From the NCBI GenBank assembly GCA_030649135.1, contig JAUSGI010000004.1, positions 1 to 64,000 on the forward strand: a DNA stretch of 64,000 bases, given 5' to 3'. Shown here one piece after another: positions 6,903 to 63,795 of this stretch. The stretch is from a bacterium. GTDB lineage: Bacteria > Patescibacteriota > Minisyncoccia > Phycocordibacterales > Zambryskibacteraceae. Made by a program: the position numbers and the translations under genes. A model generated the notes under the pieces. The model saw only the letters and a program-made list of their open reading frames with translations. It was not told the DNA's origin and did not search any database. Numbering within the stretch: the stretch's first letter is position 1; each line of letters starts with the position of its first letter.

Positions 6903-7161
6903 TTGAAATAATATAAAAGAAAGCCGCCCCCTCGTTACGAAACGAAAGTTTGGCTTTCGTCTCGCCCGAGTGGGGCGGTTATGGGCGAAGCATTGCGCTT
7001 CGCCCAGCTTTTTAACGTGGTTCACCCCACGGAGCTGTGGTCTCGTTCGCATGTTATTCAGGAATGGCTAGTTCCCTACTCCTACATGCGAATCCCCACT
7101 CACGTTTCACCTAACGGGTTTTATTGTCTAGGAGTTGTCCTTCTCCCTGAGAGTTACGAGC

Positions 7162-7563
7162 TCAGACTCGTCTAGCGGCAGCGTAGAACTTCTCTGTCTC
7201 TAGAACAGCTTGTGGCCTCTGCATTCTGCTCCAACAACCGTCGCAACCGCAGGTGGCAGCGTGCAGAATGTTGTTCACTAGATGCGGTGAACACTCGGCG
7301 AAGTAGCAGACAACTTCACATTCTTCCTGCTCTTCGTCCCAGCGGATGAATCCCGGTGGAATTTCTCGCCATCCCCGCTGCGCTTTCAGCAGTGACTCGA
7401 GACTGGCGCCTGCCTCTATCGCCGTGCGTAAGGCTTTGAGTGACAGCCGACTACGACGTTCCACCACGACATTAATGCAATGGCGATCGAAGAGGATAAG
7501 AGCGTTTCTCCTTGCGTCCGCGCACCACTTCCTCGAACGATTTTCCCTAAGTGGATTCGGCAT
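7162..7563 (-). CDS. GC-rich Cys-rich protein, HNH-like Zn-finger nuclease-like (tentative)
   Basis: Cys pairs (WCADARRN…DRHC; CEVVCYFAEC; CGCDGC) flank HLVNNILH (H-x3-N-x4-H), reminiscent of HNH. SD GGGGGTGAAAGG before ATG 7563. Much GC-richer than neighbours (by eye). Confidence 0.35.
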   Translation of the reverse strand: MPNPLRENRSRKWCADARRNALILFDRHCINVVVERRSRLSLKALRTAIEAGASLESLLKAQRGWREIPPGFIRWDEEQEECEVVCYFAECSPHLVNNILHAATCGCDGCWSRMQRPQAVLETEKFYAAARRV

Positions 7564-7898
7564 CCTTTCACCCCCTCTTATTCTCACTAGCCAAGTGAGA
7601 TTGATTTTAAAGAACAGAGCGAACTATATTCGCTCTTCTGAAAATCCAATTGACATTAGAATTTCGGAAGAGCGAGCGAACGGTGTTTTGTCCGTTCGCT
7701 CGTTGAGCTGTTTTTACGCGCAAGGAGGGGCCAAAAGGCTCGTGCCATAACCCCATCCAGAGGATCACCGACGTATCAGTGTCGTAGTGGGATTTTCACT
7801 TGCGCAACCCCGGGCAAGGGATACTTCGCCTTTCTGCCCGATCAATTAAGCGGGATCCAGATAACCACCCCCTTCAGCGTGATGGTTTGTGTTGCCAA

Positions 7899-8192
7899 TT
7901 ACGTCTTGCTTCTCGTGATGACGGCGGTCGGGAAGTTCATCTTTACTGAGAATGCTTCGCCCTCAAGCGCGATACGATTCAGGGTCCTGGTGAGCTTCAT
8001 GTGCCACGTCAGATCAGATTCACCGGTCGCTGTTTCTAGCTCGATCTGCACCGCAGGACATCCGCACCGGAGAAAGTTAACTGCCATCTCACGGTGTGCA
8101 ACGGTATTCGTTGAGATAACCGGAACTTCACCCTCACGAATCGTCACCACATCAACTGACTGCGTGATGAACACTGCGCTTGAGATACTCAT
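7899..8192 (-). CDS. GC-rich hypothetical protein (97 aa)
   Basis: ORF with SD AAAGGGAGGGG before ATG 8192 and a consensus promoter upstream. No recognized domain. Confidence 0.4.
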   Translation of the reverse strand: MSISSAVFITQSVDVVTIREGEVPVISTNTVAHREMAVNFLRCGCPAVQIELETATGESDLTWHMKLTRTLNRIALEGEAFSVKMNFPTAVITRSKT

Positions 8193-8267
8193 TCCGCCCC
8201 TCCCTTTGTTGTTGGCTGAAAGAACATGAGCGAACCATTTCGCCCACCAAAACTTTCATCTGTAACC

Positions 8268-8296
8268 ATTATACGCTAATTTTTATAATATGTCAA
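8268..8296 (-). promoter_or_regulatory. Consensus sigma70-type promoter (TTGACA-17-TATAAT) on the minus strand, driving the 7899-8192 ORF
   Basis: Minus-strand reading TTGACAtattataaaaattagcgTATAAT; both hexamers perfect, spacer 17. Confidence 0.6.
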
Positions 8297-8396
8297 TATT
8301 TAGGTCAAATATTTCTATAGGTACTCAAAATATTGCTTATTTACTTGATTAATGTATGATAAAAATGTTGACCTTTAGGCCGACATATTTAACAAA

Positions 8397-9137
8397 ATGA
8401 CCTCAACAGACCTACAAAACATTGGATTAGATGGAAAAGAGTCTACGGCGTATTTGGCCCTTCTTGAGCTTGGCGAAGCCACTATGGGCGGGCTCGTGAA
8501 GAAGTCCGGCCTGAAGCGCACCACCCTCTACGACACCATCGAGTCGCTTAAAGGCAAGGGACTAGTCAGTACAGCCAAAAGGCAGAAGAAAATCATCTAT
8601 ATAGCTGAGGATCCTAGGAAGATCCTGGAACAACTGGATGAAAAGAAATCAGCAGTAGAGAAAATGCTTCCCGAACTACTCTCTATTACCAATACTCTGA
8701 AACAAAAGCCGCGCATTAGATATTTTGAAGGCCTAGAAGGCATTAAAGAAGTGTATCGAGATACGTTGCGCTATCCAGATCAAAAAGTTCAGGCCTGGGT
8801 TTCTGAAGAAATGGTTCTCGAGTTTGATAAAAAGTTCATGGACGAATACCCGAAGAAGCGCACGGAGAAAAAAATATGGGCAGAGGTAATTGCGCCTGAT
8901 CTGCCGGAAATTCAGCGTTATAAAGGGCTCGATACAGCCTCACTCCGTACTACGCGACTCATTGATCCGGAGCGGTTCCCGCTTGCAGTCGAAATTAGCC
9001 TATATGGACCAGATCGCATCGGCATCATGTCGTTCCAAGACCAGCTAGGACTTATTATCGAAAGTGGTCCCATGGCCCGTACCTTAAAAAGTATCTTCGC
9101 TCTTCAATGGGAATCACTCGAAGATACTAAAGGATAA
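8397..9137 (+). CDS. TrmB-family transcriptional regulator (N-terminal wHTH)
   Basis: N-terminus LGLDGKESTAYLALLELGEATMGGLVKKSGLKRTTLYDTIESLKGKGLV matches the TrmB HTH. Confidence 0.75.
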   Translation: MTSTDLQNIGLDGKESTAYLALLELGEATMGGLVKKSGLKRTTLYDTIESLKGKGLVSTAKRQKKIIYIAEDPRKILEQLDEKKSAVEKMLPELLSITNTLKQKPRIRYFEGLEGIKEVYRDTLRYPDQKVQAWVSEEMVLEFDKKFMDEYPKKRTEKKIWAEVIAPDLPEIQRYKGLDTASLRTTRLIDPERFPLAVEISLYGPDRIGIMSFQDQLGLIIESGPMARTLKSIFALQWESLEDTKG

Positions 9138-9202
9138 AAACCATCCATAAACTTATTCACTTCCCTCTACACTTATAATCCGCTATAGCGTACTATAGAT
9201 GT

Positions 9203-9769
9203 ATGGGGAGGCTCGAAGAAGAAAATAGGAAGAGAGTGAGACGAGGAGAGATTCAGAAGTTAATTTTGAATTCAGTAAAAATTGCAGGAGTTTTAAGCAT
9301 TGGACTAGTTGCTCCTCAAGTGATTGGAGCTATGGGGAAGCTTGGGCTTATCACAAATAAGCGTCAGGATGAGATTGTGCGATCTTCCGCGAGCAAATTA
9401 GTGAAGAAAGGTTTGCTTAAGTATGAAAACAATAGATACAAGCTTACAGTAGATGGAGAAAAACAGTTAAGGCGATGGGAGCTACAGGACTATAAGCTTA
9501 CTCAACCAAAGAAATGGGATAAAAAGTGGCGGGTCATCATTTTCGATATTCCAGAGAAAAAGAAGAAAATCAGACATCAAATCCGTTATCTATTTACTAC
9601 TGCGGGGCTGTCTCGCCTGCAAGATAGTGTTTGGGTTTTTCCATATGACTGCGAAGATCTTATTGGTCTATTGAAAACAGATTTTGGTATTGGAAAAGAT
9701 CTTCTGTATTTGATTGTAGATGAGATAGAAAATGATAAACATCTACGCGAAGAATTCGGTCTTCTCTAG
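9203..9769 (+). CDS. PaaX-like transcriptional regulator (wHTH plus PaaX-C-like domain)
   Basis: W-rich C-terminal motif WDKKWRVIIFDIPEKKKKIRHQIRYLFTTAGLSRLQDSVWVFP resembles the PaaX C-terminal domain; N-terminal KKGLLKYENNRYKLTVDGEKQL is wHTH-like. Confidence 0.5.
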   Translation: MGRLEEENRKRVRRGEIQKLILNSVKIAGVLSIGLVAPQVIGAMGKLGLITNKRQDEIVRSSASKLVKKGLLKYENNRYKLTVDGEKQLRRWELQDYKLTQPKKWDKKWRVIIFDIPEKKKKIRHQIRYLFTTAGLSRLQDSVWVFPYDCEDLIGLLKTDFGIGKDLLYLIVDEIENDKHLREEFGLL

Positions 9770-9857: not shown

Positions 9858-11333
9858 CTATTGGACTTTGTATTCCTCTCGGATTTTTTCTATTTCTTTT
9901 TCTTCGTCACTTTGATTCTTGGCACGGGCCACTTTGCCAAGTCCGGCTAACTCTTCTGATTTGAGAGCATGTAACTCCCCCACTCTGCCTTCCATGTGCT
10001 CTGGGCTGTTAAGTTTGGGGTTCTCAAGCACTTCAGAGAGGAGAATTTCCAAGATGAAACCGATATGTGGGCCCGGGCCGGCTTTGGTTAGTCTCATGAT
10101 ATCGGCGCCGTTTATGCCAAGTTGTTTAACGGAGATTGGATCACGCAGGACTTCTTCAATCATTGATTTATATTTACGCAGACGGAAAGGGGTTTCTTTG
10201 GGTCGGCCGGTGCCGATGCGGTCGCAGACCCGCAGGTCCACCAAGTCCCAAATCAAGTCAGTGCCGACATTTCTAACAATCCTCCGCACGGCGCTTAATG
10301 TGATTTTTTCGGTGTCGGAGAAGAACATGTGCCATCGCACGAGCTTCACTGCTTTCTCCACAATTTCTTTAGGGAAATGCAGGTCTGTCAAAATTGTTCT
10401 GGAAAGCCGTGCTCCAACAACCTCGTGGTTATAGAAAGTCCATTGGTTCTTAAGACGCTTTCTTGTATGGGGTTTAGCAACATCATGGGCGAAGGCGGCA
10501 AGTCGCACGTGGAGGGGAAAGTCTTTCTTAGCGGCGTGATTTAGAGTGCGGAGGAGGTGTTCCCAGACGGTGTAGGCATGAGCCTGATTTTGTTCCATAC
10601 CTATCCCCTTTTCAAACTCCGGTGAAATAAAATTCAGGAGCCCGAGGCGACTAGCCAAATCTAAAGCGAGCGCGGGTGTCTCCGACATGATAATTTTTGT
10701 AAACTCATCACGTATTCGTTCGCGGGAGATGTGTTCCAGAAGTTCGGCGTGCGTCGTTATCGCGATTTGCGTATCATGTTCTATGGCAAAGTTTAATTCA
10801 CTAGCCAAACGCAATGCCCGAAACATGCGCAGGGCATCTTCACCAAATCTTTCGTCCGGTCTGCCCACGGTGCGAATCATTTTTTTTTCAATATCTTCCA
10901 GGCCTCCAAATGGGTCAAGTAAATCTTCGGTTAGAATATTGTAAGCAAGGGCGTTCATAGTGAAGTCTCGGCGCGCCAAGTCATCTTCTATGGTTTTACC
11001 CCACTCCACTTTATCCGGTCGGCGGAAGTCAGAATATCCCGACTCGATCCGGTACGGAGTAATCTCCACGACCTTGAGAGTTTTGTCACTCGTATCTTCG
11101 TTGACTACTCCAACTGTGCCGTACTCGTTTTCATAAAATGTTTTTGGGAAGATTTTTATTATTTCCTCTGGTTTGGCATTCGTCGCGATGTCCCAGTCTT
11201 TGGGAGCTCTGCCTATGACCAAGTCTCGTACGCATCCGCCAACGAGAAAACTTTCAAATCCGGCATCGGTAAGTATGCGTGAAATGTTTTTCACTTCTTC
11301 AGGAATCTCGAATTTGTATTTTGCGTCTTTCAT
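9858..11333 (-). CDS. cca: CCA-adding tRNA nucleotidyltransferase with HD domain
   Basis: GGCVRDLVIGRAPKDWDIATNA (Pol-beta nucleotidyltransferase head), a poly(A)-polymerase-like body and a C-terminal HD region (HD…H…D). Confidence 0.9.
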   Translation of the reverse strand: MKDAKYKFEIPEEVKNISRILTDAGFESFLVGGCVRDLVIGRAPKDWDIATNAKPEEIIKIFPKTFYENEYGTVGVVNEDTSDKTLKVVEITPYRIESGYSDFRRPDKVEWGKTIEDDLARRDFTMNALAYNILTEDLLDPFGGLEDIEKKMIRTVGRPDERFGEDALRMFRALRLASELNFAIEHDTQIAITTHAELLEHISRERIRDEFTKIIMSETPALALDLASRLGLLNFISPEFEKGIGMEQNQAHAYTVWEHLLRTLNHAAKKDFPLHVRLAAFAHDVAKPHTRKRLKNQWTFYNHEVVGARLSRTILTDLHFPKEIVEKAVKLVRWHMFFSDTEKITLSAVRRIVRNVGTDLIWDLVDLRVCDRIGTGRPKETPFRLRKYKSMIEEVLRDPISVKQLGINGADIMRLTKAGPGPHIGFILEILLSEVLENPKLNSPEHMEGRVGELHALKSEELAGLGKVARAKNQSDEEKEIEKIREEYKVQ

Positions 11334-11352
11334 ATTAGTGTCCAGCGCTTTG

Positions 11353-11423
11353 TGCCCCCAGCAGGAATCGAACCCACATCACCTGTTCCGAAGACAGGTA
11401 CTTTATCCGTTAAGCTATAGGGG
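11353..11423 (-). tRNA. tRNA-Arg (anticodon TCG)
   Basis: Minus-strand cloverleaf GCCCCTATAGCTTAACGGATAAAGTACCTGTCTTCGGAACAGG…GGTTCGATTCCTGCTGGGGGCA; anticodon loop CTTCGGA. Confidence 0.8.
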
Positions 11424-11440
11424 CCTACCTGCGCAGGCAG
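11422..11440. repeat. GC-rich palindromic motif, family A, copy 2 (abuts the 5' end of tRNA-Arg)
   Basis: gcctacctgcgcaggcagg. Its reverse complement matches 19 of 20 bases with the 44728 copy. Confidence 0.5.
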
Positions 11441-11505
11441 GCAACATCGATATCGTACCTCAAAACTCGATTTTTTTCCTTTAGTACGCTATTATCTTTT
11501 CACTC

Positions 11506-11576
11506 GCGGCTATGGTTTAGTGGTAGAACACGTCCTTGCCAAGGACGAGATTCGGGTTCGATTCCCGGTAGCCGCA
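11506..11576 (+). tRNA. tRNA-Gly (anticodon GCC)
   Basis: GCGGCTATGGTTTAGTGGTAGAACACGTCCTTGCCAAGGACG…GGTTCGATTCCCGGTAGCCGCA; anticodon loop TTGCCAA. Confidence 0.85.
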
Positions 11577-11577
11577 C

Positions 11578-11648
11578 CGGGCTGTAGTACAGCGGTAGTA
11601 TACACGCTTCGGGAGTGTGAGACCCGAGTTCGATTCTCGGCAGCCCGA
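11578..11648 (+). tRNA. tRNA-Pro (anticodon CGG)
   Basis: CGGGCTGTAGTACAGCGGTAGTATACACGCTTCGGGAGTGTG…CCGAGTTCGATTCTCGGCAGCCCGA. Perfect 7-bp acceptor with C1:G72 and A73, which are Pro identity elements; loop TTCGGGA. Confidence 0.8.
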
Positions 11649-11675
11649 TGCCAAGTTTTATTAAGCACATATAGA

Positions 11676-11746
11676 CGGGCCGTCGTATACCGGTAGTATT
11701 TGCGCTTTGGGAGCGTAAGGACTGGGTTCGATTCCCAGCGGCCCGA
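11676..11746 (+). tRNA. tRNA-Pro (anticodon TGG)
   Basis: CGGGCCGTCGTATACCGGTAGTATTTGCGCTTTGGGAGCGTA…CTGGGTTCGATTCCCAGCGGCCCGA; C1:G72; loop TTTGGGA. Confidence 0.8.
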
Positions 11747-11766
11747 TAAGATACAATTAAATATGC

Positions 11767-11837
11767 CGGGCTGTGGTATAACGGTATTACTCATGGCTGG
11801 GGGTCATGCAACCCGGGTTCAACTCCCGGCAGCCCGA
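11767..11837 (+). tRNA. tRNA-Pro (anticodon GGG)
   Basis: CGGGCTGTGGTATAACGGTATTACTCATGGCTGGGGGTCATG…CCGGGTTCAACTCCCGGCAGCCCGA; C1:G72; loop CTGGGGG. Confidence 0.8.
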
Positions 11838-11846
11838 AAGAATAAT

Positions 11847-11917
11847 GCGGGATTAGTTTAATGGTAGAACAATAGATTTCCAATCTGTTGGTGGGAGTTC
11901 GATTCCCCCATCCCGCA
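11847..11917 (+). tRNA. tRNA-Gly (anticodon TCC)
   Basis: GCGGGATTAGTTTAATGGTAGAACAATAGATTTCCAATCTGT…GGGAGTTCGATTCCCCCATCCCGCA; loop TTTCCAA. Confidence 0.85.
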
Positions 11918-11921
11918 CAAA

Positions 11922-21210: not shown

Positions 21211-21219
21211 AAAATAAGC

Positions 21220-21250
21220 GGGACGTGGAGGTTGTGACCCTCCACGTCCC
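21220..21250. terminator. Perfect 12-bp stem hairpin (gggacgtggagg-ttgtga-ccctccacgtccc), a bidirectional terminator candidate between convergent genes
   Basis: Seen directly; a second hairpin gcggttc-tgg-gaaccgc lies at 21254-21270. Confidence 0.6.
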
Positions 21251-21274
21251 GTTGCGGTTCTGGGAACCGCGAGA

Positions 21275-21835
21275 CTAACGAACCTTCTCGAGCGTACCGA
21301 CCCAGGAGAGGCCCGGGCCAGTGACCGTTGCGTGTAGTCGTCCGTCTTGCTTGATGGAGAGCAAGTAGACGTTACCTTTGGAGTCGGTAACGACTATCTT
21401 CTCACCATCAGCCCGTACCTTGGCCTCACGGCGGCCCGACCAGGTCCTGCCATAGTTCTGGTCACGTCCGCCGACATAGCGGCCGATACCACTAGACACC
21501 ATGGTGGTCGCCAGAGGCGAGATCCTCTCGAACGCGAGTACCTGATGGGCCATCAGGACGTTTGCCGATCCGCCACGAAATTCGCCGACCCAGACACCAG
21601 AGAGCCCGGCAACTTCCGTCGGGACACTAGGGTCCGGCGGGGTGATGTTGATGTCCGGGAGCACGGGCACATCCGGGACATGCTTCCGTATGACTTCCGT
21701 AAGCGATGTCGTCTCCATGCTGGGAGACGCAGCCTGCGCCACCTGGTTTCCGTCGGCCTGCTGGGCCGACGCCGGCACGTTGATGCTGGTGATGAAAAGA
21801 GCGATTACCACTGCGATCAGTGAAAAAGTCTTCAC
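21275..21835 (-). CDS. GC-rich secreted hypothetical protein
   Basis: GTG start at 21835, preceded by GGAGG with a 5-nt spacer; signal peptide KTFSLIAVVIALFITSINVPASA. The region is markedly GC-richer than its flanks (by eye). Confidence 0.5.
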   Translation of the reverse strand: MKTFSLIAVVIALFITSINVPASAQQADGNQVAQAASPSMETTSLTEVIRKHVPDVPVLPDINITPPDPSVPTEVAGLSGVWVGEFRGGSANVLMAHQVLAFERISPLATTMVSSGIGRYVGGRDQNYGRTWSGRREAKVRADGEKIVVTDSKGNVYLLSIKQDGRLHATVTGPGLSWVGTLEKVR

Positions 21836-21997
21836 GATGACCTCCTGTGTGTTTAGGGTGAGCTGCTTGATGGGGATTGTCTGTGCGTAGTATACCATAT
21901 ACTACCTACAAATACAACGACCTGGGTGCGTGCCCATAATATGGCCAATTAGCCTGACTTTTCAATTTTTGAATAAAGTAGTGAAAAAGCATATCAT

Positions 21998-24605: not shown

Positions 24606-24615
24606 TTTCTCGGTA
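24036..24615 (+). repeat. Roughly 580-bp near-identical repeat, copy 1 (3' end of paralog 1)
   Basis: Almost base-for-base identical to 26451-27030, about 95 percent or more by eye, including the stop codon and first bases downstream. Confidence 0.85.
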
Positions 24616-48767: not shown

Positions 48768-48807
48768 TAAGATTTTATAATTCATTTCATTCATAATAAA
48801 ATCTAAG

Positions 48808-50976: not shown

Positions 50977-51070
50977 CTTTTAATACGGAAAATTTGACAT
51001 TGTGATTAGTTTGTGACAGAGTGAAAGTAGACGTACGGCCCTGCGGGCCAAATTCAAGGAGGACACTATC

Positions 51071-51337
51071 ATGTTGCGTTGGGGTGCTATGCTCTTCATC
51101 GGCGTGCTGATCTTTCTGTGCGGGGTGTTTGTGTCAGACAGGTGGGTGGTCGTCGGTAAGGCAGAGGCCATATCATCCGGCCGTCCACACTGTCAGGCGT
51201 ACATGGACCACGCCGTTCGGGCGGTCCAGGAAAGTGAGCATCAGTATGGAGCGCCGAACTACGCGAAAGCAGTAGCATCGACGGCCTGGAGTGCCATCTA
51301 CCGTAACTGCATGGGGGGGGCCCTACTAGTCCGGTAA
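51071..51337 (+). CDS. GC-rich small membrane protein (cassette between fusA and tuf)
   Basis: SD CAAGGAGG before the ATG; TM helix MLFIGVLIFLCGVFV; a terminator follows. GC is much higher than in fusA or tuf (by eye). Confidence 0.45.
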   Translation: MLRWGAMLFIGVLIFLCGVFVSDRWVVVGKAEAISSGRPHCQAYMDHAVRAVQESEHQYGAPNYAKAVASTAWSAIYRNCMGGALLVR

Positions 51338-51375
51338 GGGACTTCCAATGCGCTAATCTTTTTTCATGTTCGCCG

Positions 51376-51409
51376 CCGGTCTGCTTACCCAGACCGGCTT
51401 TATTATTTC
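51376..51409 (+). terminator. Intrinsic terminator (ccggtctg-cttaccc-agaccgg plus ctttattatttc)
   Basis: Stem plus T-tract after the 51071 ORF. Confidence 0.65.
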
Positions 51410-51442
51410 TTACTTTGAAGATTGCACATTCAGAATTTTCGG

Positions 51443-51471
51443 TTGACGAATTTTATATTAAGTCTTATAAT
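51443..51471 (+). promoter_or_regulatory. Consensus sigma70-type promoter TTGACG-17-TATAAT for the 51522 ORF
   Basis: TTGACGaattttatattaagtctTATAAT. Confidence 0.6.
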
Positions 51472-51521
51472 ATAGGAAGGAACGAACACGAGTTAACCCT
51501 CTATCCATAAAGGGGGAAGAG

Positions 51522-51803
51522 ATGAAAAAGGTTATCGTCCTCTTACTGCTTCTCGGCACCGATTACTGGATTGACCAAGACAACCGAATCATCTTCGGCA
51601 GGACGCCGAAGATCGTGAACGAGATTTGCTTCATGAGGGGAGGGGCGTTTTTCGGAAAAAACGGCAGAAGGCTCGTCTGGGCCGACGGCTGTCATGACCC
51701 GTGGGACGATGTAATGATTCTCCCGCTCGAGGCCCGGAGCCCCGAGCACTACATTCACAGGCACGAACTCAAGCACCGTCTCGACGGTGCTTGGCATGAC
51801 TGA
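51522..51803 (+). CDS. GC-rich small secreted protein (second cassette between fusA and tuf)
   Basis: SD AAAGGGGGAAG before the ATG; signal peptide MKKVIVLLLLLG; a terminator follows. Confidence 0.45.
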   Translation: MKKVIVLLLLLGTDYWIDQDNRIIFGRTPKIVNEICFMRGGAFFGKNGRRLVWADGCHDPWDDVMILPLEARSPEHYIHRHELKHRLDGAWHD

Positions 51804-51820
51804 CAATGAGGGAGCTGGAC

Positions 51821-51850
51821 CCCCGGCACGCACGCGTGCCGGGGTTTTCG
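51821..51850 (+). terminator. Intrinsic terminator (ccccggcacgc…gcgtgccgggg plus ttttcg)
   Basis: GC stem plus a short T-tract after the 51522 ORF. Confidence 0.55.
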
Positions 51851-51991
51851 CTGGATTGACTATTTCTGCCCTTTTGTATACCATAGCCCTTACGCGTTAA
51901 CGTTTGTTGGTACTTTGATATTTTCTTCATAGACCATATAGCGGTTTAGTGCGTTAAAACATTAATATCTATTCAATAATAATTTACTAAT

Positions 51992-54985: not shown

Positions 54986-55824
54986 TGAAAAAGTACCGAC
55001 CAACAACAGATTCCCGTCGCCATATGTCTGGCATAGACTTCCGCAAGATTCTTACTTCAGATAAACCTGAAAAGTCTCTGACTAGTGGCTTCAGGCGTGG
55101 TACCGGTCGGAATAATCGTGGTCGTATTACCACTCGGCATAAAGGCGGGGGTCATAAACGTCTTTTTCGGGAGGTTGATTTTTCCTACGATAAGTATGAC
55201 GTACCCTTTACCATAAAGACCATCGAATATGATCCCAATCGTTCCGGTTTTATCGGGCTCGCGGTCTACCGAGACGGGGAGAAGAGATATGTGCTTTTGC
55301 ACAATAGCGCGCGAGTCGGGCAAACTTTTGTGGTTTCCGAGAATGCTCCACAAGTGCCTGGTAATCGTTTGCCTCTCGGCAATATCTCTGTCGGCACTTT
55401 TGTTTATAACGTTGAACTTAAACACAAGGGTGGCGCGAAAATTGCCCGCTCTGGAGGTGATTATGTAGAAATATTGGCTAAGGAGGGGGGCTTTGTTGAT
55501 TTGAAAATGCCTTCAAGCGAGGTGCGTAAAGTGCCTATTAACGCCTGGGCCTCTATCGGGGAAGTTTCTAATAATGAAAATCGTTTGGTAACCATCGGCA
55601 AGGCCGGTCGTTCACGTTGGCTTGGTATCCGCCCACACGTCCGCGGTACCGCTATGAATCCGGTAGACCATCCGCACGGAGGTGGAGAAGGCCGTTCCGG
55701 CCGAGGTCGCAGGCGTGCTATTTCTTACTACGGTAAACCGACTGGCAAGGGTCAGAAATCTCGCCGAACCAAAAAATATTCAAACAAGTTTATGGTCAGT
55801 CGCCGAAAAGTAGGGAAGAGGTAG
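54985..55824 (+). CDS. rplB: Ribosomal protein L2
   Basis: …GRNNRGRITTRHKGGGHKR…GNISVGTFVYNVEL…HGGGEGR…. Confidence 0.95.
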   Translation: MKKYRPTTDSRRHMSGIDFRKILTSDKPEKSLTSGFRRGTGRNNRGRITTRHKGGGHKRLFREVDFSYDKYDVPFTIKTIEYDPNRSGFIGLAVYRDGEKRYVLLHNSARVGQTFVVSENAPQVPGNRLPLGNISVGTFVYNVELKHKGGAKIARSGGDYVEILAKEGGFVDLKMPSSEVRKVPINAWASIGEVSNNENRLVTIGKAGRSRWLGIRPHVRGTAMNPVDHPHGGGEGRSGRGRRRAISYYGKPTGKGQKSRRTKKYSNKFMVSRRKVGKR

Positions 55825-55830
55825 GTAATG

Positions 55831-55859
55831 TTGACGCCAGCTTCTCGTTAGTGTATAAT
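55831..55859 (+). promoter_or_regulatory. Consensus sigma70-type promoter TTGACG-17-TATAAT for the 55897 ORF
   Basis: TTGACGccagcttctcgttagtgTATAAT immediately after the rplB stop. Confidence 0.6.
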
Positions 55860-55896
55860 GTAGGTAGGAGTACCAAGAATTACCAGGAGGGGGGAC

Positions 55897-56322
55897 ATGA
55901 CAGTTGCGGGAACGTTGTTTAACAAGTTGTTGAGGGTGTGCGGCAAGCGGGTGGTCGACTCCGCTAGCAACAGGAAGGAGTTCGTCGACAACGGCACCTT
56001 GTTTCCGGTGCCCAACATCGGCCAGGAGATGTACCTATTCCCGGTCACTCGCCGTCTCACCGGTGATGAGGCAGAGGACGCCTATGCATCTTTTGGCCTC
56101 GAAGCTGCCGGGTGGGAGGAGCTCGCTCTGGCCAATGACGCCAACCCTGCCATGGCGTCAGAGAGACCCAACGCCACTCAATGGCGGGATCGGGGGCGGT
56201 GGTGCTACATCACCTTCTCCGAGCCTGGGGAGAACTATCTCCTTCGGGCGGGGAAGGTCGATAGGTGGGACCCCGGGTGGTGGCTCGCAGGTCGTCCCAT
56301 CAAGTGGGACGAGTACCGGTAA
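55897..56322 (+). CDS. GC-rich hypothetical protein (Trp-rich; cassette between rplB and rplJ)
   Basis: SD AGGAGGGGGG before the ATG; a strong terminator follows. No recognized domain. Confidence 0.45.
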   Translation: MTVAGTLFNKLLRVCGKRVVDSASNRKEFVDNGTLFPVPNIGQEMYLFPVTRRLTGDEAEDAYASFGLEAAGWEELALANDANPAMASERPNATQWRDRGRWCYITFSEPGENYLLRAGKVDRWDPGWWLAGRPIKWDEYR

Positions 56323-56332
56323 TTCGGGGTCT

Positions 56333-56370
56333 GGGCGTTCGGACAGTCGTCCGAACGCCCTTTTCGTTTG
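56333..56370 (+). terminator. Strong intrinsic terminator (gggcgttcggac-agtc-gtccgaacgccc plus ttttcgtttg)
   Basis: Perfect 12-bp stem plus T-tract. Confidence 0.8.
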
Positions 56371-56479
56371 TATACTTGCATTAAATTTTTATTCCTGTAA
56401 GGTATTTCTCCATAAGGTCAAAGACAGTAGGCATCCATAAGCCCTACCGAGACTAAACCACTCTGGCCTTATTAAATTA

Positions 56480-56968
56480 ATGGCCATTTCGAAAGCCAAA
56501 AAGGGAGAAGTGCTCACGAAGCTTAAGGCGGCCTTCAAAAGTGCCAAGTCTTTGGTGTTCATTAACTTTAAGGGCTTGAATGTGGCCAATGCCACTCAAA
56601 TGCGCCGTGCTCTCAAAAGTGAAGGTATTTCTTACACGGTTGCCAAAAAGACTCTAACCAACTTAGCGCTTGAGGGAGAGAAGTTTCAGGGCACAGCACC
56701 AGTGCTCGAAGGTGAGTTAGCTCTTGCGTGGGGAGAAGACTTGGTGGCTCCGGCTCGCGGAGTTTATGGTTTCCAGAAAAAGTTTCCGGAGAGTCTCAAG
56801 ATTATGGGTGGAGTCTTCGAAGGTCGTTTTATGACGGCAGTCGAAATGGAGGAGATTGCCCAGATTCCTACGCTCGAGGTGCTTCGCGGCAAGTTCGTCA
56901 ATATTATTAATTCCCCGATACAGCGCTTTGTGATTGGGCTTAATGAAATTAGTAAGATTAAGAGTTAA
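56480..56968 (+). CDS. rplJ: Ribosomal protein L10
   Basis: MAISKAKKGEVLTKLKAAFKSAKSLVFINFKGLNVANATQMRRALKSEG… L10 pattern. Confidence 0.9.
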   Translation: MAISKAKKGEVLTKLKAAFKSAKSLVFINFKGLNVANATQMRRALKSEGISYTVAKKTLTNLALEGEKFQGTAPVLEGELALAWGEDLVAPARGVYGFQKKFPESLKIMGGVFEGRFMTAVEMEEIAQIPTLEVLRGKFVNIINSPIQRFVIGLNEISKIKS

Positions 56969-56972
56969 AAAC

Positions 56973-57386
56973 ATGGAAGATACACAAAATACAAATACCG
57001 AAATAGTTAAGGAAGTTCCTACAAAGTTCAAAAAGATTGTTGAAGAAGTTGAGACCATGTCGGTACTTGAACTCAATGAACTGGTGAAAGTTTTCGAAAA
57101 CAAGTTCGGAGTTTCTGCTACAGCTGTAGCCGCGCCCGCCTCCGCGCAAGGCTCCGGCGAGGCAATAGAAGAGAAATTGACAGCAAGCGTGGAGCTCACT
57201 AATAGCGGTGCCAACAAAATCGCCATCATCAAGGTGGTCAAAGAAGTGCTCGGCCTCGGTCTCAAAGAAGCTAAGGACCTCGTCGATGCTGCTCCCTCGA
57301 TGCTTAAAGCAGACATGAAGAAAGAAGAGGCAGAAGCGCTCAAAAAGCAGATAGAAGACGCTGGTGGTAAAGTGACGCTCAAGTAG
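56973..57386 (+). CDS. rplL: Ribosomal protein L7/L12
   Basis: …MSVLELNELVKVFENKFGVSA…AKDLVDAAP…EAEALKKQIEDAGGKVTLK; start at the internal Met 56973. Confidence 0.9.
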   Translation: MEDTQNTNTEIVKEVPTKFKKIVEEVETMSVLELNELVKVFENKFGVSATAVAAPASAQGSGEAIEEKLTASVELTNSGANKIAIIKVVKEVLGLGLKEAKDLVDAAPSMLKADMKKEEAEALKKQIEDAGGKVTLK

Positions 57387-57398
57387 TAGAATGGGCGC

Positions 57399-57956
57399 AT
57401 GAAATCCGTTTCCCACATCTTCGGCGGAGAGGCCAAAGTAAAGATTATGCGCCTGTTTATCTTTAACCCAGGTCTCACTTTTACTTCCGCTGAAGTGGCC
57501 CACCGTGCCAAAGAGAGACCTCATACGGCCCGCAAGGAACTTAGAATTCTCGCCAAGGCGGGTCTCATCAAGCGACGCACGAAGGGCTTTGCTCTCAACT
57601 CTTCCTACCTGTATCTTCCCGCGATTGAAAATTTTCTGATAGATGCCACGCCCATCACGGAGAAAGAGATAATCCAGAAAGTTTCTCGCGCCGGCAACAT
57701 CAGACTTGTCTTAATTTCCGGTGTCTTTCTACATGACCGTGATTCTCGTGTGGACATCCTCGTCGTGGGGGACCATCTCAAAGGAGCCAAACTCTTGTCG
57801 GCTATATCATCGATTGAAGCTCTCTTGGGCAAGGAGTTGCGTTATGCCGCTTTCGAGACCGCCGATTTCCGATATCGTCTGGGTATCTACGACAAGCTTA
57901 TTAGAGATATTCTGGACTACCAGCACGAGAAGATTCTTAATAAATTGGGTATTTAA
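57399..57956 (+). CDS. Hypothetical protein with N-terminal wHTH-like region (putative regulator)
   Basis: MRLFIFNPGLTFTSAEVAHRAKERPHTARKELRILAKAGLIKRR is wHTH-like; the C-terminal domain is unrecognized. Confidence 0.4.
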   Translation: MKSVSHIFGGEAKVKIMRLFIFNPGLTFTSAEVAHRAKERPHTARKELRILAKAGLIKRRTKGFALNSSYLYLPAIENFLIDATPITEKEIIQKVSRAGNIRLVLISGVFLHDRDSRVDILVVGDHLKGAKLLSAISSIEALLGKELRYAAFETADFRYRLGIYDKLIRDILDYQHEKILNKLGI

Positions 57957-57998
57957 CCCCGCTTCACCCCGCCTTGGCGGGGCAAGCGGCGGGGCAGG
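57957..57998 (+). repeat. GC-rich palindromic motif, family B, copy 3 (ccccgcttcaccccgccttggcggggcaagcggcggggcagg)
   Basis: Directly after the stop codon at 57956. Confidence 0.5.
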
Positions 57999-58116
57999 AT
58001 TATCCACACCCCAATAAACCTCGTATTTTATAGGTGTATAATGAATCGCGTACCCCTTTTAGAGTGGTCACAATTAGAAGCTAAGTGCATTTGCACAGAC
58101 ATCGAGCTAAGAATAT

Positions 58117-58815
58117 ATGTTATTAAACACATGGGGAGAAGTGCTAACCCTTTCCTTCCAGAATCTTTGGGTAGGAGTGGTTAACTTTGTCCCGAACCTT
58201 GTTATTGCTATCGTCATCCTTATCCTAGGATGGTTAGTTGGCGCGCTTATCGGCCGAGCAATTTGGCAAGTGTTCAAGTCTCTGAAAGTTGATGACGCTC
58301 TTCGCCAGGCGGGATTCGACTCTTTTGTGCGTCGTGGAGGTATTGACCTTGATTCCGGCGCGTTTGTTGGTGGTTTGGTGAAGTGGTTTGTGATAGTGAT
58401 GTTTTTAGTGGCAGCTCTGGATGTTTTAGGCCTTTCACAAGTCAACTTCTTCCTCCAAGACGTAGTACTTGGCTATTTGCCTCGTGTACTCGCTGCGGCT
58501 TTGGTTCTCTTGGTGGCTGGCGTTATCGGTGATGTCACCGGACGTGTGGTTGTCACAGCAGCTCGGACGGCAGGTATTGATTCAGCACATTTTGTGGGTG
58601 CTGTGGCCAAGTGGGCCATCTGGATTTTCGCCATTCTCGTAGCTCTTTCCCAACTGGGTATTGCTGCGGCGTTTAGTCAGACTCTCTTCACAGGCATTGT
58701 CATCGCGGTCTCTCTCGCCCTCGGTCTCTCCTTCGGTCTCGGCGGACAGGAAGCGGCATCTCGCTTCCTCGAAAAGCTTCGCGGAGAAATGAGTGGTAAA
58801 AACCACAACGGTTAA
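58117..58815 (+). CDS. Polytopic membrane protein with conserved TM-helix repeats
   Basis: Repeated hydrophobic segments with a recurring …VV.FLVAALDVLGL… pattern. Confidence 0.5.
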   Translation: MLLNTWGEVLTLSFQNLWVGVVNFVPNLVIAIVILILGWLVGALIGRAIWQVFKSLKVDDALRQAGFDSFVRRGGIDLDSGAFVGGLVKWFVIVMFLVAALDVLGLSQVNFFLQDVVLGYLPRVLAAALVLLVAGVIGDVTGRVVVTAARTAGIDSAHFVGAVAKWAIWIFAILVALSQLGIAAAFSQTLFTGIVIAVSLALGLSFGLGGQEAASRFLEKLRGEMSGKNHNG

Positions 58816-58861
58816 CCTCGAGGTATTACTTAGCTAGATAATACCCGGATAATCTGTAGGG

Positions 58862-58890
58862 AAGAGCCCGTTTTCGGGCTCTTTTCTGTT
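58862..58890 (+). terminator. Intrinsic terminator (aagagcccg-tttt-cgggctctt plus ttctgtt)
   Basis: Stem plus T-tract after the membrane-protein gene. Confidence 0.7.
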
Positions 58891-58893
58891 CTA

Positions 58894-58922
58894 TTGACTT
58901 TTAAACCTCATTGTGATATGAT
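58894..58922 (+). promoter_or_regulatory. Sigma70-type promoter TTGACT-17-TATGAT for the 58997 ORF
   Basis: TTGACTtttaaacctcattgtgaTATGAT. Confidence 0.55.
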
Positions 58923-58996
58923 TAGGGCAGGATGGGCATTGGCCCATAAGACGATCTTCGTTTACTACCTTCAAGGCTACACCTTAGGAGAGTGTC

Positions 58997-59506
58997 ATGA
59001 GCGTAGTGGAGAAAGCCGAACTCTCGCCAATCCTGGGTAGCGTACCGGTCGTGATGTTTTTCTTCAACGTCACCGACAAGAGGCTCGTGCCTTGGTGGGC
59101 GAAGACCGTGTCGGGCCTCGAGCAGAAGCCGGCCACCGAAGGTCAGCCCTCCGGTGTCGAGTTGATCAGGGGCAAGCACGTGAATCTCTATTCCGTTCTC
59201 GACGAGATCGGAGAGCAGGGATTCATTCCGGTCCGGCTCCTCGTCATCGAGAGGGGTCAAGGTAGGGTTCGTATGGCCCTGGTGTGCGTTCACTCGGATC
59301 ACCTGAAAGAGGGCGATCGACGGATGCCCCGGAGAGAGGAAGCTGATGTACGGGGGCTTCTCAAGAAGCTCTGGGACGTTCGGGTTCATCGTAACCCGGG
59401 CGAGCACGGAGGGAACTTCATCATCGGGTGTGCCTACCCGGCGATGGGGAATTCCAGGGGCAAGCTGCTCGTCGCCGACGGGCAGTTCCGGTTGGAGACG
59501 AAGTAG
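58997..59506 (+). CDS. GC-rich hypothetical protein (cassette upstream of rpsS)
   Basis: SD TAGGAGAG before the ATG; a terminator follows. No recognized domain. Confidence 0.45.
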   Translation: MSVVEKAELSPILGSVPVVMFFFNVTDKRLVPWWAKTVSGLEQKPATEGQPSGVELIRGKHVNLYSVLDEIGEQGFIPVRLLVIERGQGRVRMALVCVHSDHLKEGDRRMPRREEADVRGLLKKLWDVRVHRNPGEHGGNFIIGCAYPAMGNSRGKLLVADGQFRLETK

Positions 59507-59517
59507 CTGTGAGGTCT

Positions 59518-59560
59518 GGACCGGGGGCGCAACGCGCGCTCCCGGTCCTTTACTTTTTAC
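59518..59560 (+). terminator. Intrinsic terminator (ggaccggg…cccggtcc plus tttactttttac)
   Basis: GC stem plus T-tract. Confidence 0.65.
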
Positions 59561-59613
59561 GTTGATTTATATACTATATCCCGCATAGCTCGCTCGAGCT
59601 TTTTCATTTAATA

Positions 59614-61852: not shown

Positions 61853-62224
61853 ATGATTCAACCACAATCCATTGTGCAAATAGCAGACAATTCCGGGGCA
61901 AAACTCGGTCGCGTTTTCAAGGTGCTTGGAAGCTCAAAAAAACGCTACGCTTCCATCGGAGAGCTGGTGGTGCTCTCGGTTCAAAAGGCCGAACCCAGGA
62001 AGCTGGTAAAGAAAAAGGATATTCTTTACGGGATAGTGGTGAGACAAAGGGCGCCTTTCCGACGCAAGGATGGTACGTATGTACGTTTTGACGAAAATGC
62101 CGTGGTTATCCTGGATAGTACCAAAAAGGAGCCAATGGCGGGCCGAGTTTTCGGCCCGGTACCCAGAGAAATTGGCGAAATGGGATTCCAGAAAATTATT
62201 TCTTTAGCGCCGGAAGTAGTTTAA
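61853..62224 (+). CDS. rplN: Ribosomal protein L14
   Basis: [17 protein letters not shown]…; full-length L14. Confidence 0.95.
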
Positions 62225-62229
62225 ATATC

Positions 62230-62454
62230 ATGCATGTAAAAAAGGGAGACAACGTAATAGTTTTAACGGGAAAAGATAAAGGTAAGATTGGTAAAATCTT
62301 GCGCGCCTTTCCAAAACAAGACCAAGTGCTGGTGGAAGGGGTGAATACCAAAAAGGTTCACGAACGGCCGAAAAAGAGTGGCGCCAAAGGTACCATTATC
62401 GAAAAGAATTTTCCCATTCACGTCTCTAATGTAAAAATCCATGGAAAATCTTAG
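62230..62454 (+). CDS. rplX: Ribosomal protein L24
   Basis: [24 protein letters not shown]… KOW motif. Confidence 0.9.
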
Positions 62455-62953
62455 AGAAAAATCAAAAACGATTCCGGGTTATAAAAACCCCATGCAGGCG
62501 CCACGAGTTTTGAAGGTGGTGGTCTCTTCCGGAGTCGGTTCATTTAAAGACAAGAACAAATTTAAAGTAGTGGAAGACCGTCTGGCGCGTATTACCGGAC
62601 AGAAAGCAGCCCCACGAGGAGCTAAAATTTCGATCGCTACTTTCAAATCTCGACAAGGAGACATTGTGGGCTACCAAGTAACTTTGCGTGGCAAGCGTAT
62701 GTACGATTTTTTGGACAGATTAGTACATCTTGCCCTTCCGCGCACCAAAGACTTCCGTGGTATTTCCCCGAACGCTGTTGATGAGATGGGCAATTATACT
62801 TTGGGTATCAAAGAACACAACATTTTTCCCGAAACTTCCGACGAAGAGCTTAAAGACGTCTTCGGTCTCGCTGTGACCATCGTCACTACCGCCAAGTCCA
62901 AAGAAGAAGTGCTCGCTTTCCTTGCCCATCTCGGTTTCCCGTTCAAGAAGTAG
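62441..62953 (+). CDS. rplE: Ribosomal protein L5
   Basis: …[15 protein letters not shown]…; full-length L5. Confidence 0.95.
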
Positions 62954-62991
62954 AAGTTATCTACATTATATAAAATAGAAAAATCCCCGCG

Positions 62992-63019
62992 CACAGTGCT
63001 CTGTGCGCGGGGGTCTGAA
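62992..63019. terminator. Perfect 12-bp stem hairpin (ccccgcgcacag-tgct-ctgtgcgcgggg). The T-tract is on the minus strand, so it terminates the 63034-63630 gene and is possibly bidirectional after rplE.
   Basis: Seen directly; minus strand continues …GGGGATTTTTCTATTTT. Confidence 0.75.
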
Positions 63020-63033
63020 ATTGTGACGGATAG

Positions 63034-63630
63034 CTATGAGTCCGACAGGATGCGAACATCCGCTTCTGCCGTCGGGCCCTTTTGTGTCAGGAAAGCGATG
63101 GCGCGGGCGAGTAACGCCGGGCTGTCCCGGAACATGGATAGTCCCATGTTGCAGAGCTTGCAGAGCAATGCCATTCTTCTCGCGCCGTAGTGCGCCGCCC
63201 CATAGAGCGAAAGTGGCAATGCCTGCCCAATCTCATCGCATGAGGTTTCGGGCTGGCTGCAGATCGCGCACCGACCACCCTGCTTCTTGAAGAGTTCATT
63301 GTAGTGACCGTTCATTTTCACGGCAGGGTGCGGATGGGTCTGCGCAAGTGGCGGAGCTGCTGATATGACAGCAGGCAATCCCGTGCTCACACCATCGTGG
63401 AGCTTGCAGTTTTGTCTGGTCCTGATGCTACCCCCATATGGGTATGTCCCAAACTCCTCGATTGGCCTGTTTTCTCCGCACTCCTTGCAAGGTCTTGTTT
63501 CCATACCAACCTGCTTTCCTTCCTGAACGTGAAGGTTGCAATCTCGCTGTGCACGACCTCCCGCACCAAGCTTGAAACTGTCCAATGGCCTCATTTTCTC
63601 GCACTTAATGCAGTATCTTTTCCCTCCCAT
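63034..63630 (-). CDS. GC-rich endonuclease VII-like (phage recombination endonuclease family) Zn-finger protein with degenerate catalytic motif
   Basis: C-terminal QGGRCAICSQPE…MALLCKLCNMGLSMFRDSPALLARAIAFL aligns with the Endo VII core QGGxCAICGxxE…GLLCxxCNxGLGxFxDDPxLLxxAIxYL. Two N-terminal Cx2C…CxLH repeats. The expected HVDHDH box is replaced by LSLYGAAHYG. SD AAGGGAG before the ATG. Confidence 0.6.
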   Translation of the reverse strand: MGGKRYCIKCEKMRPLDSFKLGAGGRAQRDCNLHVQEGKQVGMETRPCKECGENRPIEEFGTYPYGGSIRTRQNCKLHDGVSTGLPAVISAAPPLAQTHPHPAVKMNGHYNELFKKQGGRCAICSQPETSCDEIGQALPLSLYGAAHYGARRMALLCKLCNMGLSMFRDSPALLARAIAFLTQKGPTAEADVRILSDS

Positions 63631-63795
63631 GCCATGCTCCCTTCTTTAGGGACGGCAACCAATATGGTCGTCTGAACTTGAGTCTGGCGCGAATCCTACA
63701 TTGTGTCCACGGGTATGGCAAGTCTAAGGTTTGACAATACCCCTTTCAGTTGATAAGCTGAAACGCGAGCTTTTCGAAGCTTTTTTAGTTTAATT

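Follow-up and report, generated by a model that had tools for sequence, protein, structure and literature searches.

GC-rich, probably moron-like gene cassettes in variable slots between conserved genes of a Paceibacteria contig

The first 64,000 nucleotides of contig JAUSGI010000004.1 (assembly GCA_030649135.1; hereafter the window) come from a metagenome-assembled genome (MAG; locus tags Q7R69_) of Paceibacteria, within the Parcubacteria of the candidate phyla radiation (CPR), a tiny-genome groundwater bacterium. At seven loci in this window we found GC-rich cassettes between conserved genes. Each cassette is an autonomous unit of promoter, Shine-Dalgarno (SD) site, one small open reading frame (ORF) and intrinsic terminator, in a style foreign to the host. 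We read these loci, with moderate confidence, as cassettes akin to phage morons and to the minimal mobile elements of Neisseria, which occupy a few polymorphic slots and are exchanged when their conserved flanks recombine. They do not form a single family of homing endonucleases, and they add a new variation to the cassettes and hotspots already known instead of founding a new family of mobile elements.

All seven loci that a preliminary description of the window had reported were present at the positions given there. They hold nine cassette ORFs, which we compared with the 70 other ORFs of the window; GC3 denotes GC content at third codon positions.

c1a, 7162-7563, minus strand: Cys/His-rich ORF of 133 amino acids (aa), ATG at 7563, preceded by AAGAGGGGGTGA; GC 0.547, GC3 0.560.
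Hairpin element, 7607-7701, minus strand: 95 nt, conserved, downstream of c1b, with an inverted repeat of 21-nt arms.
c1b, 7899-8296, minus strand: HU/TrmB slot, 97-aa ORF 8192-7899, promoter TTGACA-17-TATAAT at 8296-8268, SD AAAGGGAGGGG (5-nt match); GC 0.520, GC3 0.602.
c2, 21219-21965, minus strand: 207-aa ORF 21898-21275, promoter-like TTGAAA-18-TATTAT at 21965-21936; GC 0.590, GC3 0.712.
c3, 43044-44420, minus strand: adenylosuccinate-lyase-like gene of the purB type, SD AGGAGG; GC 0.546, GC3 0.622.
fusA/tuf slot, 50980-51855, plus strand: two tandem cassettes, c4a and c4b.
c4a, ORF 51071-51337, plus strand: SD AAGGAGG, terminator 51375-51398; GC 0.588, GC3 0.685.
c4b, ORF 51522-51803, plus strand: promoter 51443-51471, terminator 51821-51844; GC 0.550, GC3 0.723.
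c5, 55823-56374, plus strand: rplB/rplJ slot, 141-aa ORF 55897-56322, promoter TTGACG-17-TATAAT at 55831-55859, SD AGGAGG, terminator 56333-56360; GC 0.608, GC3 0.761.
c6, 58846-59561, plus strand: MscS-like/rpsS slot, 169-aa ORF 58997-59506, promoter TTGACT-17-TATGAT at 58894-58922, leader hairpin, SD TAGGAG, terminator 59518-59548; GC 0.600, GC3 0.765.
c7, 62953-63772, minus strand: rplE/rpsN slot, 198-aa ORF 63630-63034, promoter-like TTGCCA-17-TAGGAT at 63721-63693, terminator 63012-62985; GC 0.554, GC3 0.618.

Composition separated these ORFs from the rest of the window, whose overall GC content was 46.8%. The 70 other ORFs had a GC of 0.459 ± 0.042 (maximum 0.527) and a GC3 of 0.474 ± 0.069 (maximum 0.630). 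Eight of the nine cassette ORFs exceeded every one of them in GC, and the two sets differed in both measures (Mann-Whitney, p = 6.6e-7 for GC and 1.5e-6 for GC3), which bears out a difference previously judged by eye. The range of 57-62% GC proposed at that time held for c2, c4a, c5 and c6 and was too high for c1a, c1b, purB, c4b and c7 (52-55%). A 500-bp composition profile of the window peaked at all seven loci, with locus 1 (6905-8300) being the weakest compositional case (z = 1.5-2.1). In the called frames of c2, c4a, c4b, c5 and c6, GC content followed the order GC3 > GC1 > GC2, which is typical of genuine coding sequence from a GC-rich background.

The cassettes also carry distinctive expression signals. 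The promoters described earlier at 8296 (minus strand), 51443, 55831 and 58894 matched the sigma70 consensus at 12, 11, 11 and 10 of 12 positions, respectively. Sites with at least 10 matches were not enriched in the window overall (16 found versus 16.0 ± 4.6 in shuffled sequences). Five of the 16 were located directly upstream of cassette ORFs in the correct orientation, where about 0.1 is expected according to our own estimate from the share of strand positions concerned, and all three sites in the window with at least 11 matches were cassette promoters. Of the six strongest hairpin-plus-T sites in the 47-64 kb region, five belonged to c6, c7, c5, c4b and c4a, and c2 has a perfect 13-bp hairpin (21219-21251), in line with the GC-stem/T-tract terminators of the preliminary description.

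The sharpest contrast of all concerned SD sites, which we scored as a match of at least 4 nt to the AGGAGG core within 22 nt of the start. Such a match preceded seven of the nine cassette genes (5-6 nt in five of them), but only 3 of the 54 native genes with an ATG start, none of which matched over more than 4 nt. This agrees with the earlier remark that housekeeping genes lack GGAGG-type sites. Examples of upstream stretches among the 51 native genes without a match are 48786-48807, 51970-51991, 59592-59613 and 63774-63795. In many native genes, including those of relatives, a TATAAT-like box lies at the start codon or directly before it, a position suggestive of mRNAs with a short leader or none; judging from these sequences, leaderless or short-leader translation may be common in this lineage.

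To see how these features are distributed beyond the window, we used a comparison set of about 190 related loci (denoted by L numbers). The slot genes that bore SD sites in L092, L187, L100, L002, L107, L188 and L189 were the ones with a high GC3 (0.61-0.88); L188 and L189 are c5-family loci. SD matches of GC-rich slot genes in relatives were mostly 5-6 nt long (4 nt in L002 and L107). Core genes of relatives, ribosomal ones included, had no SD matches, nor did AT-rich insertion sequence (IS) and accessory genes. Exceptions to the rule were a slot gene in L005 (from family B, see below) without an SD match and a c7-like gene in L191 with a G-rich stretch only.

Despite this shared style, all-vs-all comparisons of the cassettes at DNA and protein level detected no shared sequence. 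The cassettes are thus alike in architecture and composition, as the preliminary description had stated, and the same class recurs in relatives with unrelated ORFs. The same result speaks against calling them a dispersed family, as there is no kinship by sequence among them. Around the seven loci, searches for flanking direct or inverted repeats and target duplications yielded short chance matches and terminator hairpins only, and neither an integrase nor a transposase was found in the window.

The 47-64 kb region is the str-S10-spc cluster (rpsL, rpsG, fusA, tuf, rpsJ, rplC, rplD, rplW, rplB ... rpsS ... rplE, rpsN). Several Zambryskibacteria-like Parcubacteria/Paceibacteria MAGs have an rplB product (L2) that is 89-92% identical to that of the window at the aa level. 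In this lineage, the interval between rplB and rpsS holds a block of rplJ, rplL, a helix-turn-helix (HTH) protein gene and a gene for an MscS-like membrane protein (56480-58815). Close relatives used to compare the slots share about 77-86% DNA identity with the window. Because global MAFFT alignments put insertion gaps in wrong places, we took insertion boundaries from the ends of blastn high-scoring segment pairs (HSPs).

Six slots were polymorphic: HU/TrmB, ComEC/rpmB, fusA/tuf, rplB/rplJ, MscS-like/rpsS and rplE/rpsN. Clean empty sites were found for all four slots of the ribosomal cluster in genomes with 89-92% rplB identity, and the cassettes lie between conserved genes without disrupting them, as had been proposed. 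The empty sites were as follows.

fusA/tuf: empty in L107, where the HSPs abut (window 50979/51856 versus L107 6761/6760) and segment 50980-51855 is absent, and in L187, with a 167-bp spacer.
rplB/rplJ: empty in L105, L190 and L092; window segment 55823-56374 is absent from L105 (5 bp between HSPs) and from L190.
MscS-like/rpsS: empty in L002, L106, L107, L155, L109 and L004; in L002 and L107, 66-72 bp stand in place of window segment 58846-59561, and in the six genomes the entire spacer is about 141-158 bp long.
rplE/rpsN: empty in L002, L107, L155 and L187; about 60 bp take the place of window segment 62953-63772 in L002 and L107; the slot measures 23-80 bp in L002, L107 and L155 (23 bp in L155).

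Junction lengths in 61 relatives showed that variability is concentrated at few places. The rplB/rpsS gap had a median of 791 bp and exceeded 350 bp in 44 of the 61 relatives, while the fusA/tuf gap had a median of 706 bp and exceeded 350 bp in 25 of 35. At eleven other junctions of the cluster, including rplW/rplB, rplC/rplD, rpsS/rplV and rplX/rplE, medians were 16-250 bp and at most three loci each exceeded 350 bp. The rpsG/fusA and rpsJ/rplC junctions were variable too, with gaps over 350 bp in 14 of 31 and 21 of 63 cases. Most ORFs in the gaps of relatives (241 of 300) were singletons.

Where relatives do not have an empty slot or an ortholog, the slot contains unrelated ORFs, many of them GC-rich and SD-bearing and some of them AT-rich IS or other genes. 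After rplB, L002 has a 167-aa ORF, read as YkuD-like, with its own promoter and a GC-rich terminator. L092 carries GC-rich ORFans in the fusA/tuf, MscS-like/rpsS and rplE/rpsN slots, the last of which also holds an AT-rich IS200/IS605 Y1 transposase. In the L082 group, a DUF5678 gene and an aspartic protease gene follow rplB, and the MscS-like gene is followed by an rve-type IS. Downstream of HU, L100 has a GC-rich 214-aa gene and other relatives have a ParE toxin module accompanied by small ORFs. At the ComEC side, L107 encodes a different GC-rich purB (34% identical to that of the window, GC3 0.69) and L002 has no purB. As slots may be empty, hold an ortholog or hold unrelated cargo among relatives, cargo has been gained, lost and swapped.

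Since the window is a MAG contig and its GC-rich segments differ sharply in composition from their surroundings, they might be chimeras of metagenome assembly or binning. This explanation is effectively refuted. Each segment is only 0.5-0.9 kb long with host genes in the correct order on both sides, an independent Logan assembly contains rplW-rplB-c5, orthologous cassettes occupy identical junctions in MAGs and contigs from other samples, and cassette orthologs show purifying selection at the codon level.

Orthologs at the same junctions were found for three cassettes. L105 has a c6 ortholog (71% identity) with conserved promoter, leader and terminator, and the more distant L006 has a c6 homolog of 27% identity directly upstream of rpsS. 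The closest members of the c5 family are located in the rplB/rplJ slot of L186 and L187 (41-47% identity by different measures), and the L186 promoter and terminator sequences resemble those of the window. L190, the closest relative that we found, has a c7 ortholog (75%) in the same slot and orientation, but lacks c5, and its rpsS slot contains an ORF from an unrelated family. Members of this family B were also found in L092 and L187, and the distant L005 has one at 26% identity. In the MscS-like/rpsS slot, family A (c6) and family B follow a common promoter and leader hairpin, a pattern that looks like cargo replacement inside a conserved expression slot. That the two families, which encode proteins of the same size, are hyper-diverged homologs was not supported by BLASTP or hhalign. 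The family B gene of L190 looks frameshifted (positions 2678-3244 of the reverse complement): it matches L092 x175 over its N-terminal half and continues as Arg-rich, out-of-frame sequence, so it is either a pseudogene or an assembly error.

We next quantified how the cargo evolves, using nonsynonymous (dN) and synonymous (dS) divergence. Between the window and L105, c6 has a dN/dS of 0.30 and a dS of 0.65, the latter similar to its flanks. The dN/dS was about 0.3 for c5 and 0.42 for family B, versus 0.02-0.09 for flanking genes. Hence, c5 and c6 evolve fast under purifying, though relaxed, selection. Their same-junction orthologs, the flank-like dS of c6 and the dN/dS of about 0.3 indicate that c5, c6 and c7 are maintained genes and not fresh selfish insertions.

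Such maintenance would also be expected if the cargo consisted of ordinary lineage-specific genes that have been at these junctions since an early ancestor, evolve very fast and are lost time and again, with GC3, SD sites and promoters reflecting selection on expression, for example in a separately regulated, SD-dependent regulon, and neither mobility nor a foreign origin. The orthologs of c5, c6 and c7 at the same junctions, the synonymous divergence of c6, the promoter and leader conserved across the rpsS slot, the high GC3 and SD style retained in orthologs despite a dS of at least 0.65, and the distant c6 homolog upstream of rpsS in L006 are all compatible with this. Still, we regard it as unlikely, because its expectations conflict with the distribution of the cargo: L190, at 81-86% DNA identity, has family B, yet c6 is found in L105, which is slightly more distant (77-84%), and families A and B each span close and distant lineages. 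In addition, two purB genes that are only 34% identical occupy one site between flanks of about 72-94% identity, the dS of c5 between L186 and L187 (1.30) is well above that of rplB (0.49), and unrelated cargo, including IS elements, is found in the same slots. The preliminary description had considered that the same ORFs at the same junctions in relatives would mark ordinary genes; orthologs of c5, c6 and c7 do exist, yet so do empty and swapped slots.

The preliminary description had instead favoured selfish, self-mobile elements, either free-standing homing-endonuclease genes or a mobile promoter-plus-gene family that targets spacers between conserved genes. Cassette c7 fits the former part. 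Its product has two N-terminal CxxC...C..H Zn-ribbon repeats and an Endo VII-type beta-beta-alpha-Me domain, with a score of 33.1 bits against Pfam PF02945 (Recombination endonuclease VII; gathering cut-off 23.6) and an E-value of 1.4e-15 against the PHROG endonuclease VII, in agreement with the earlier Endo VII-like call for 63034-63630. A profile of the c7 family (12 homologs) matched the restriction endonuclease Hpy99I (3fc3, E = 1.9e-6). Among these homologs C121, C124, C157, C160 and H147 are invariant and N161 is conserved in at least 90%, with H147 and N161 aligning to the NH...CN motif of Hpy99I. The c7 family has Y-G-A in place of the first D-H of DHDH, the motif characteristic of the Endo VII family in the Pfam consensus. 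As no methyltransferase partner was seen among neighbouring genes, c7 is probably not part of a restriction-modification system.

In the T-even phage T4, seg and mob genes are set between very conserved genes and have their own expression signals. The placement of c7 is similar; it is present or absent at rplE/rpsN among close relatives, and a c7 relative of 55% identity lies between infA and rpsM on many contigs of another Parcubacteria lineage. IS200/IS605 and rve transposase genes in identical slots of relatives also agree with selfish mobility. Nevertheless, we consider this explanation very unlikely for the cassettes as a class. Eight of the nine products show no nuclease, integrase or transposase domain (c5 is lectin-like and purB an enzyme), and the window cassettes share no ends, repeats or target duplications. 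A third member of the c7 family adjoins LemA outside the ribosomal clusters, and c7 itself, 75% conserved with L190, evolves like a maintained gene.

If the cassettes are instead moron-like units exchanged through their flanks, the slots would offer suitable sites, as they lie at transcription-unit boundaries: after HU, after ComEC, and at fusA/tuf, rplB/rplJ, MscS-like/rpsS and rplE/rpsN. An extra unit would fit there without breaking an operon. Insertions may be tolerated because the slots coincide with terminator-promoter boundaries, such as those before the conserved rplJ promoter and leader (from 56374) and before the rpsS promoter (after 59562). Lacking mobility genes and end repeats, the cassettes most likely move in the manner of Neisseria minimal mobile elements: competence machinery would take up DNA, and recombination would proceed through the highly conserved flanking genes, sometimes as homology-facilitated illegitimate recombination. 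Real IS elements occasionally use the same sites, and c7, as a predicted nuclease, might also aid its own spread by cutting empty sites. Retention of the cassettes by selection despite fast evolution suggests surface, interaction or conflict functions, for which the lectin-like c5, the small membrane or secreted proteins c2, c4a and c4b and the nuclease c7 would be candidates.

Two observations hint at this recombination route. One is a gene at 42145-43002 that NCBI names ComEC/Rec2 competence protein. The other is found in L082, where 52 nt of the rplB 3′ end recur as direct repeats on both sides of a 730-bp AT-rich insertion after rplB (10789-11570), which contains the DUF5678 and retropepsin-like aspartic protease genes. 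Of the two copies, the distal one is 94% identical to rplB of the window versus 88% to the first copy of L082 itself, which is the footprint expected from an imported donor fragment carrying its own rplB end. A published survey (PMC12455944) reports that most horizontal gene transfer (HGT) in Patescibacteria stays inside the phylum, and it puts competence forward as a possible route.

Several points weigh against exchange through the flanks. No transfer event was observed, with recombination in the flanks deduced from one duplicated rplB end in a relative and the patchy distribution, and ancient cassettes that were lost differentially could produce the same pattern. Relative to L105, the flank-like dS of c6 indicates vertical inheritance at that depth. 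Promoter regions in the rplB slot look alike by eye in the window, L002, L006 and L082 despite different cargo, and as the cargo families of the rpsS slot have a promoter and leader in common, part of the cassette may stay in place as a landing pad rather than move. No donor was found, most cargo has few or no detectable homologs, and phage and plasmid collections gave no match for a typical c5-family member. The mobilome is usually AT-rich, the opposite of this GC-rich accessory DNA. Finally, c2 had no orthologous junction available for comparison.

A further possibility, which we consider clearly unlikely, extends this picture. In Paceibacteria, a small number of fixed expression slots in the most conserved gene strings could form a platform where fast-evolving genes from a pan-lineage pool are swapped in without any dedicated recombinase. 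These genes would share a functional dialect (GC-rich codons, canonical SD sites and consensus sigma70 promoters) within genomes whose native genes have no SD sites and often look leaderless, and the dialect would set apart proteins of host interaction or conflict as translated under a regime of their own. In an extreme version, the genes may be tuned for expression in a partner or host cell, by analogy with T-DNA genes.

The preliminary description knew of no described system that matches the loci, which was too strong, as phage morons and Neisseria minimal mobile elements are close precedents. Morons, as defined by Hendrix and Juhala (reviewed in PMC3594210), are transcribed independently from a promoter and to a terminator of their own, have a deviant GC content, and are placed between two genes that are neighbours in related genomes, with cargo that differs without relation from one case to the next. 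The anatomy of the cassettes agrees with that of morons in every defining feature except phage residence. Morons belong to phage or prophage genomes, whereas the cassettes lie in the cellular str-S10-spc cluster and beside HU, ComEC and other genes, and no phage structural genes were seen in the window backbone or near the slots. The minimal mobile elements of Neisseria (Saunders & Snyder 2002), by the definition quoted in PMC3082526, likewise comprise a conserved flanking gene pair that encloses different whole-gene cassettes in different genomes, without transposase, integrase or terminal repeats; this applies to the window, while some relatives have IS elements in the slots. Uptake by a competent organism and homologous recombination are the proposed route for those elements, and may be the route here. 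They differ in taxon, and divergence is far deeper here (about 80% DNA identity). Moreover, the present cargo is a distinct GC-rich, SD-bearing class in an SD-less host, and several of its slots are inside the ribosomal super-operon.

Other systems resemble the cassettes in part. Like the T-even seg/mob genes and Endo VII/Hpy99I nucleases, c7 encodes a nuclease and stands alone between highly conserved neighbours, has a promoter and a terminator of its own and varies in presence among relatives, and its family occurs in another ribosomal-gene spacer too. Yet c7 resides in a cellular chromosome, its cleavage and homing are predictions, and the other eight cassette genes do not encode nucleases. 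Integron cassettes are also single-ORF modules swapped at a fixed chromosomal platform, comparable to the rpsS slot with its promoter and leader ahead of different ORFs. Unlike in integrons, the cassette ends share no attC-like repeat, the slots neither contain nor adjoin an IntI integrase, a promoter and a terminator belong to each unit, and several dispersed slots with one cassette take the place of an array. In chromosomal HGT hotspots, accessory genes are gathered in a few intervals flanked by core genes, and the accessory genes described here are distributed similarly. According to the Patescibacteria survey (PMC12455944), HGT and genomic-island calls are enriched in translation genes, e.g., ribosomal proteins, tuf and infA; the text examined does not describe single-gene promoter-SD-ORF-terminator cassettes, fixed slots or an SD dichotomy. 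What is notable for CPR genomics is the combination of fixed slots that recur inside the ribosomal super-operon with the contrast between two dialects.

Little is understood of how CPR bacteria, or Patescibacteria, innovate; their genomes are tiny and streamlined, and they presumably live attached to other cells. Our results indicate that the ribosomal super-operon, the usual yardstick for conservation and MAG phylogeny, has recurrent soft spots where single-gene units are gained, lost and replaced over short evolutionary distances. In genomes without SD sites, the cargo class (GC-rich, SD-led, strongly promoted and terminated) can be found with simple rules, which provides a handle on the accessory gene pool of CPR that is likely involved in host interaction. 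It also raises the testable question of two translation-initiation regimes within one cell. Such inserts will affect compositional predictors of genomic islands and concatenations of marker genes in Patescibacteria.

Most cassette products could not be assigned to a family (c1a, c1b, c2, c4a, c4b and c6), and no cassette protein matched a defence system in PADLOC. The c5 product has a C-type-lectin-like fold and belongs to a family of 239 representatives at E ≤ 1e-3, none of which is in Pfam. A role as variable protein of a diversity-generating retroelement was rejected, as the template repeat was not found. A structure prediction of c6 from two sequences was unusable (pLDDT 36). The small secreted or membrane products proposed earlier are plausible in part: c2 has an N-terminal membrane or signal anchor (Kyte-Doolittle 2.37, residues 21-39), c4a has a hydrophobic, transmembrane-like N-terminus, and c4b has a short signal-like N-terminal segment. 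The c2 protein formed a singleton cluster and had no matches in viral contigs, where c7 had weak matches to its Endo VII domain only. By its domains (Lyase_1, 1.3e-32; ASL_C, 7.1e-17), c3 is purB-like and encodes a putative adenylosuccinate lyase, with 280 bits against TIGR00928, below the equivalog cut-off of 326.2. A 68-aa ORF over the purB start region (44482-44688, minus strand), AT-rich unlike purB, matches phrog_12635, a PHROG of unknown function, at 1.3e-9.

At locus 1, the earlier HNH-like call for 7162-7563 found no backing, as c1a had no match in Pfam, PHROGs, NCBIfam or PADLOC. The 95-nt hairpin element is 79% identical to L100 6631-6725, in the equivalent place downstream of the GC-rich 214-aa slot gene, and is probably a terminator or a small RNA. 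From the c1a stop to the HU terminator extend about 250 nt of non-coding, hairpin-rich sequence (6905-7160, minus strand), with hairpins such as GGGCGAAGCGCAATGCTTCGCCC and a long stem CCGCCCC...GGGGGCGG. No Rfam family matched locus 1 at gathering or E-value thresholds, including the 95-nt element and 6905-7160, and a large structured RNA is therefore unsupported.

Upstream of rplJ (56374-56479), a promoter-like sequence is conserved together with a leader-like element (CATAAGGTCAAAGACAG...CCATAAG...CCGAGAC) that is nearly invariant across four genomes. This element may be an autoregulatory RNA of the L10-leader type; Rfam gave no report at the gathering threshold. The rplJ-rplL-HTH-MscS block that follows is a lineage-specific relocation into the rplB/rpsS hotspot, present in L002-L005, L082, L092, L105-L107, L186, L187 and L190 and not found between rplB and rpsS in more distant relatives. 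Its HTH protein has weak matches to PADLOC PDC-M05A.

A second set of compositionally atypical genes is AT-rich (GC 0.35-0.39) and without SD sites (895-1311, 28918-29298, 45584-46848, 39980-40639 and 9203-9769). These accessory genes include Fic/DOC, a 23S-rRNA-IVS protein, DUF3850/ASCH with an SDH-type protease, a VanY/M15 peptidase and a PaaX_M-like protein. In L092, a PaaX-like gene is located between rpsG and fusA. The window further contains a tRNA cluster (11352-11918) with Arg(TCG) on the minus strand, followed by Gly(GCC), Pro(CGG), Pro(TGG), Pro(GGG) and Gly(TCC) on the plus strand. Two large neighbouring ORFs at 22866-27020 (579 and 778 aa), which have CARDB/PKD domains and a GC2 above GC1, probably encode Ser/Thr/Gly-rich surface proteins.

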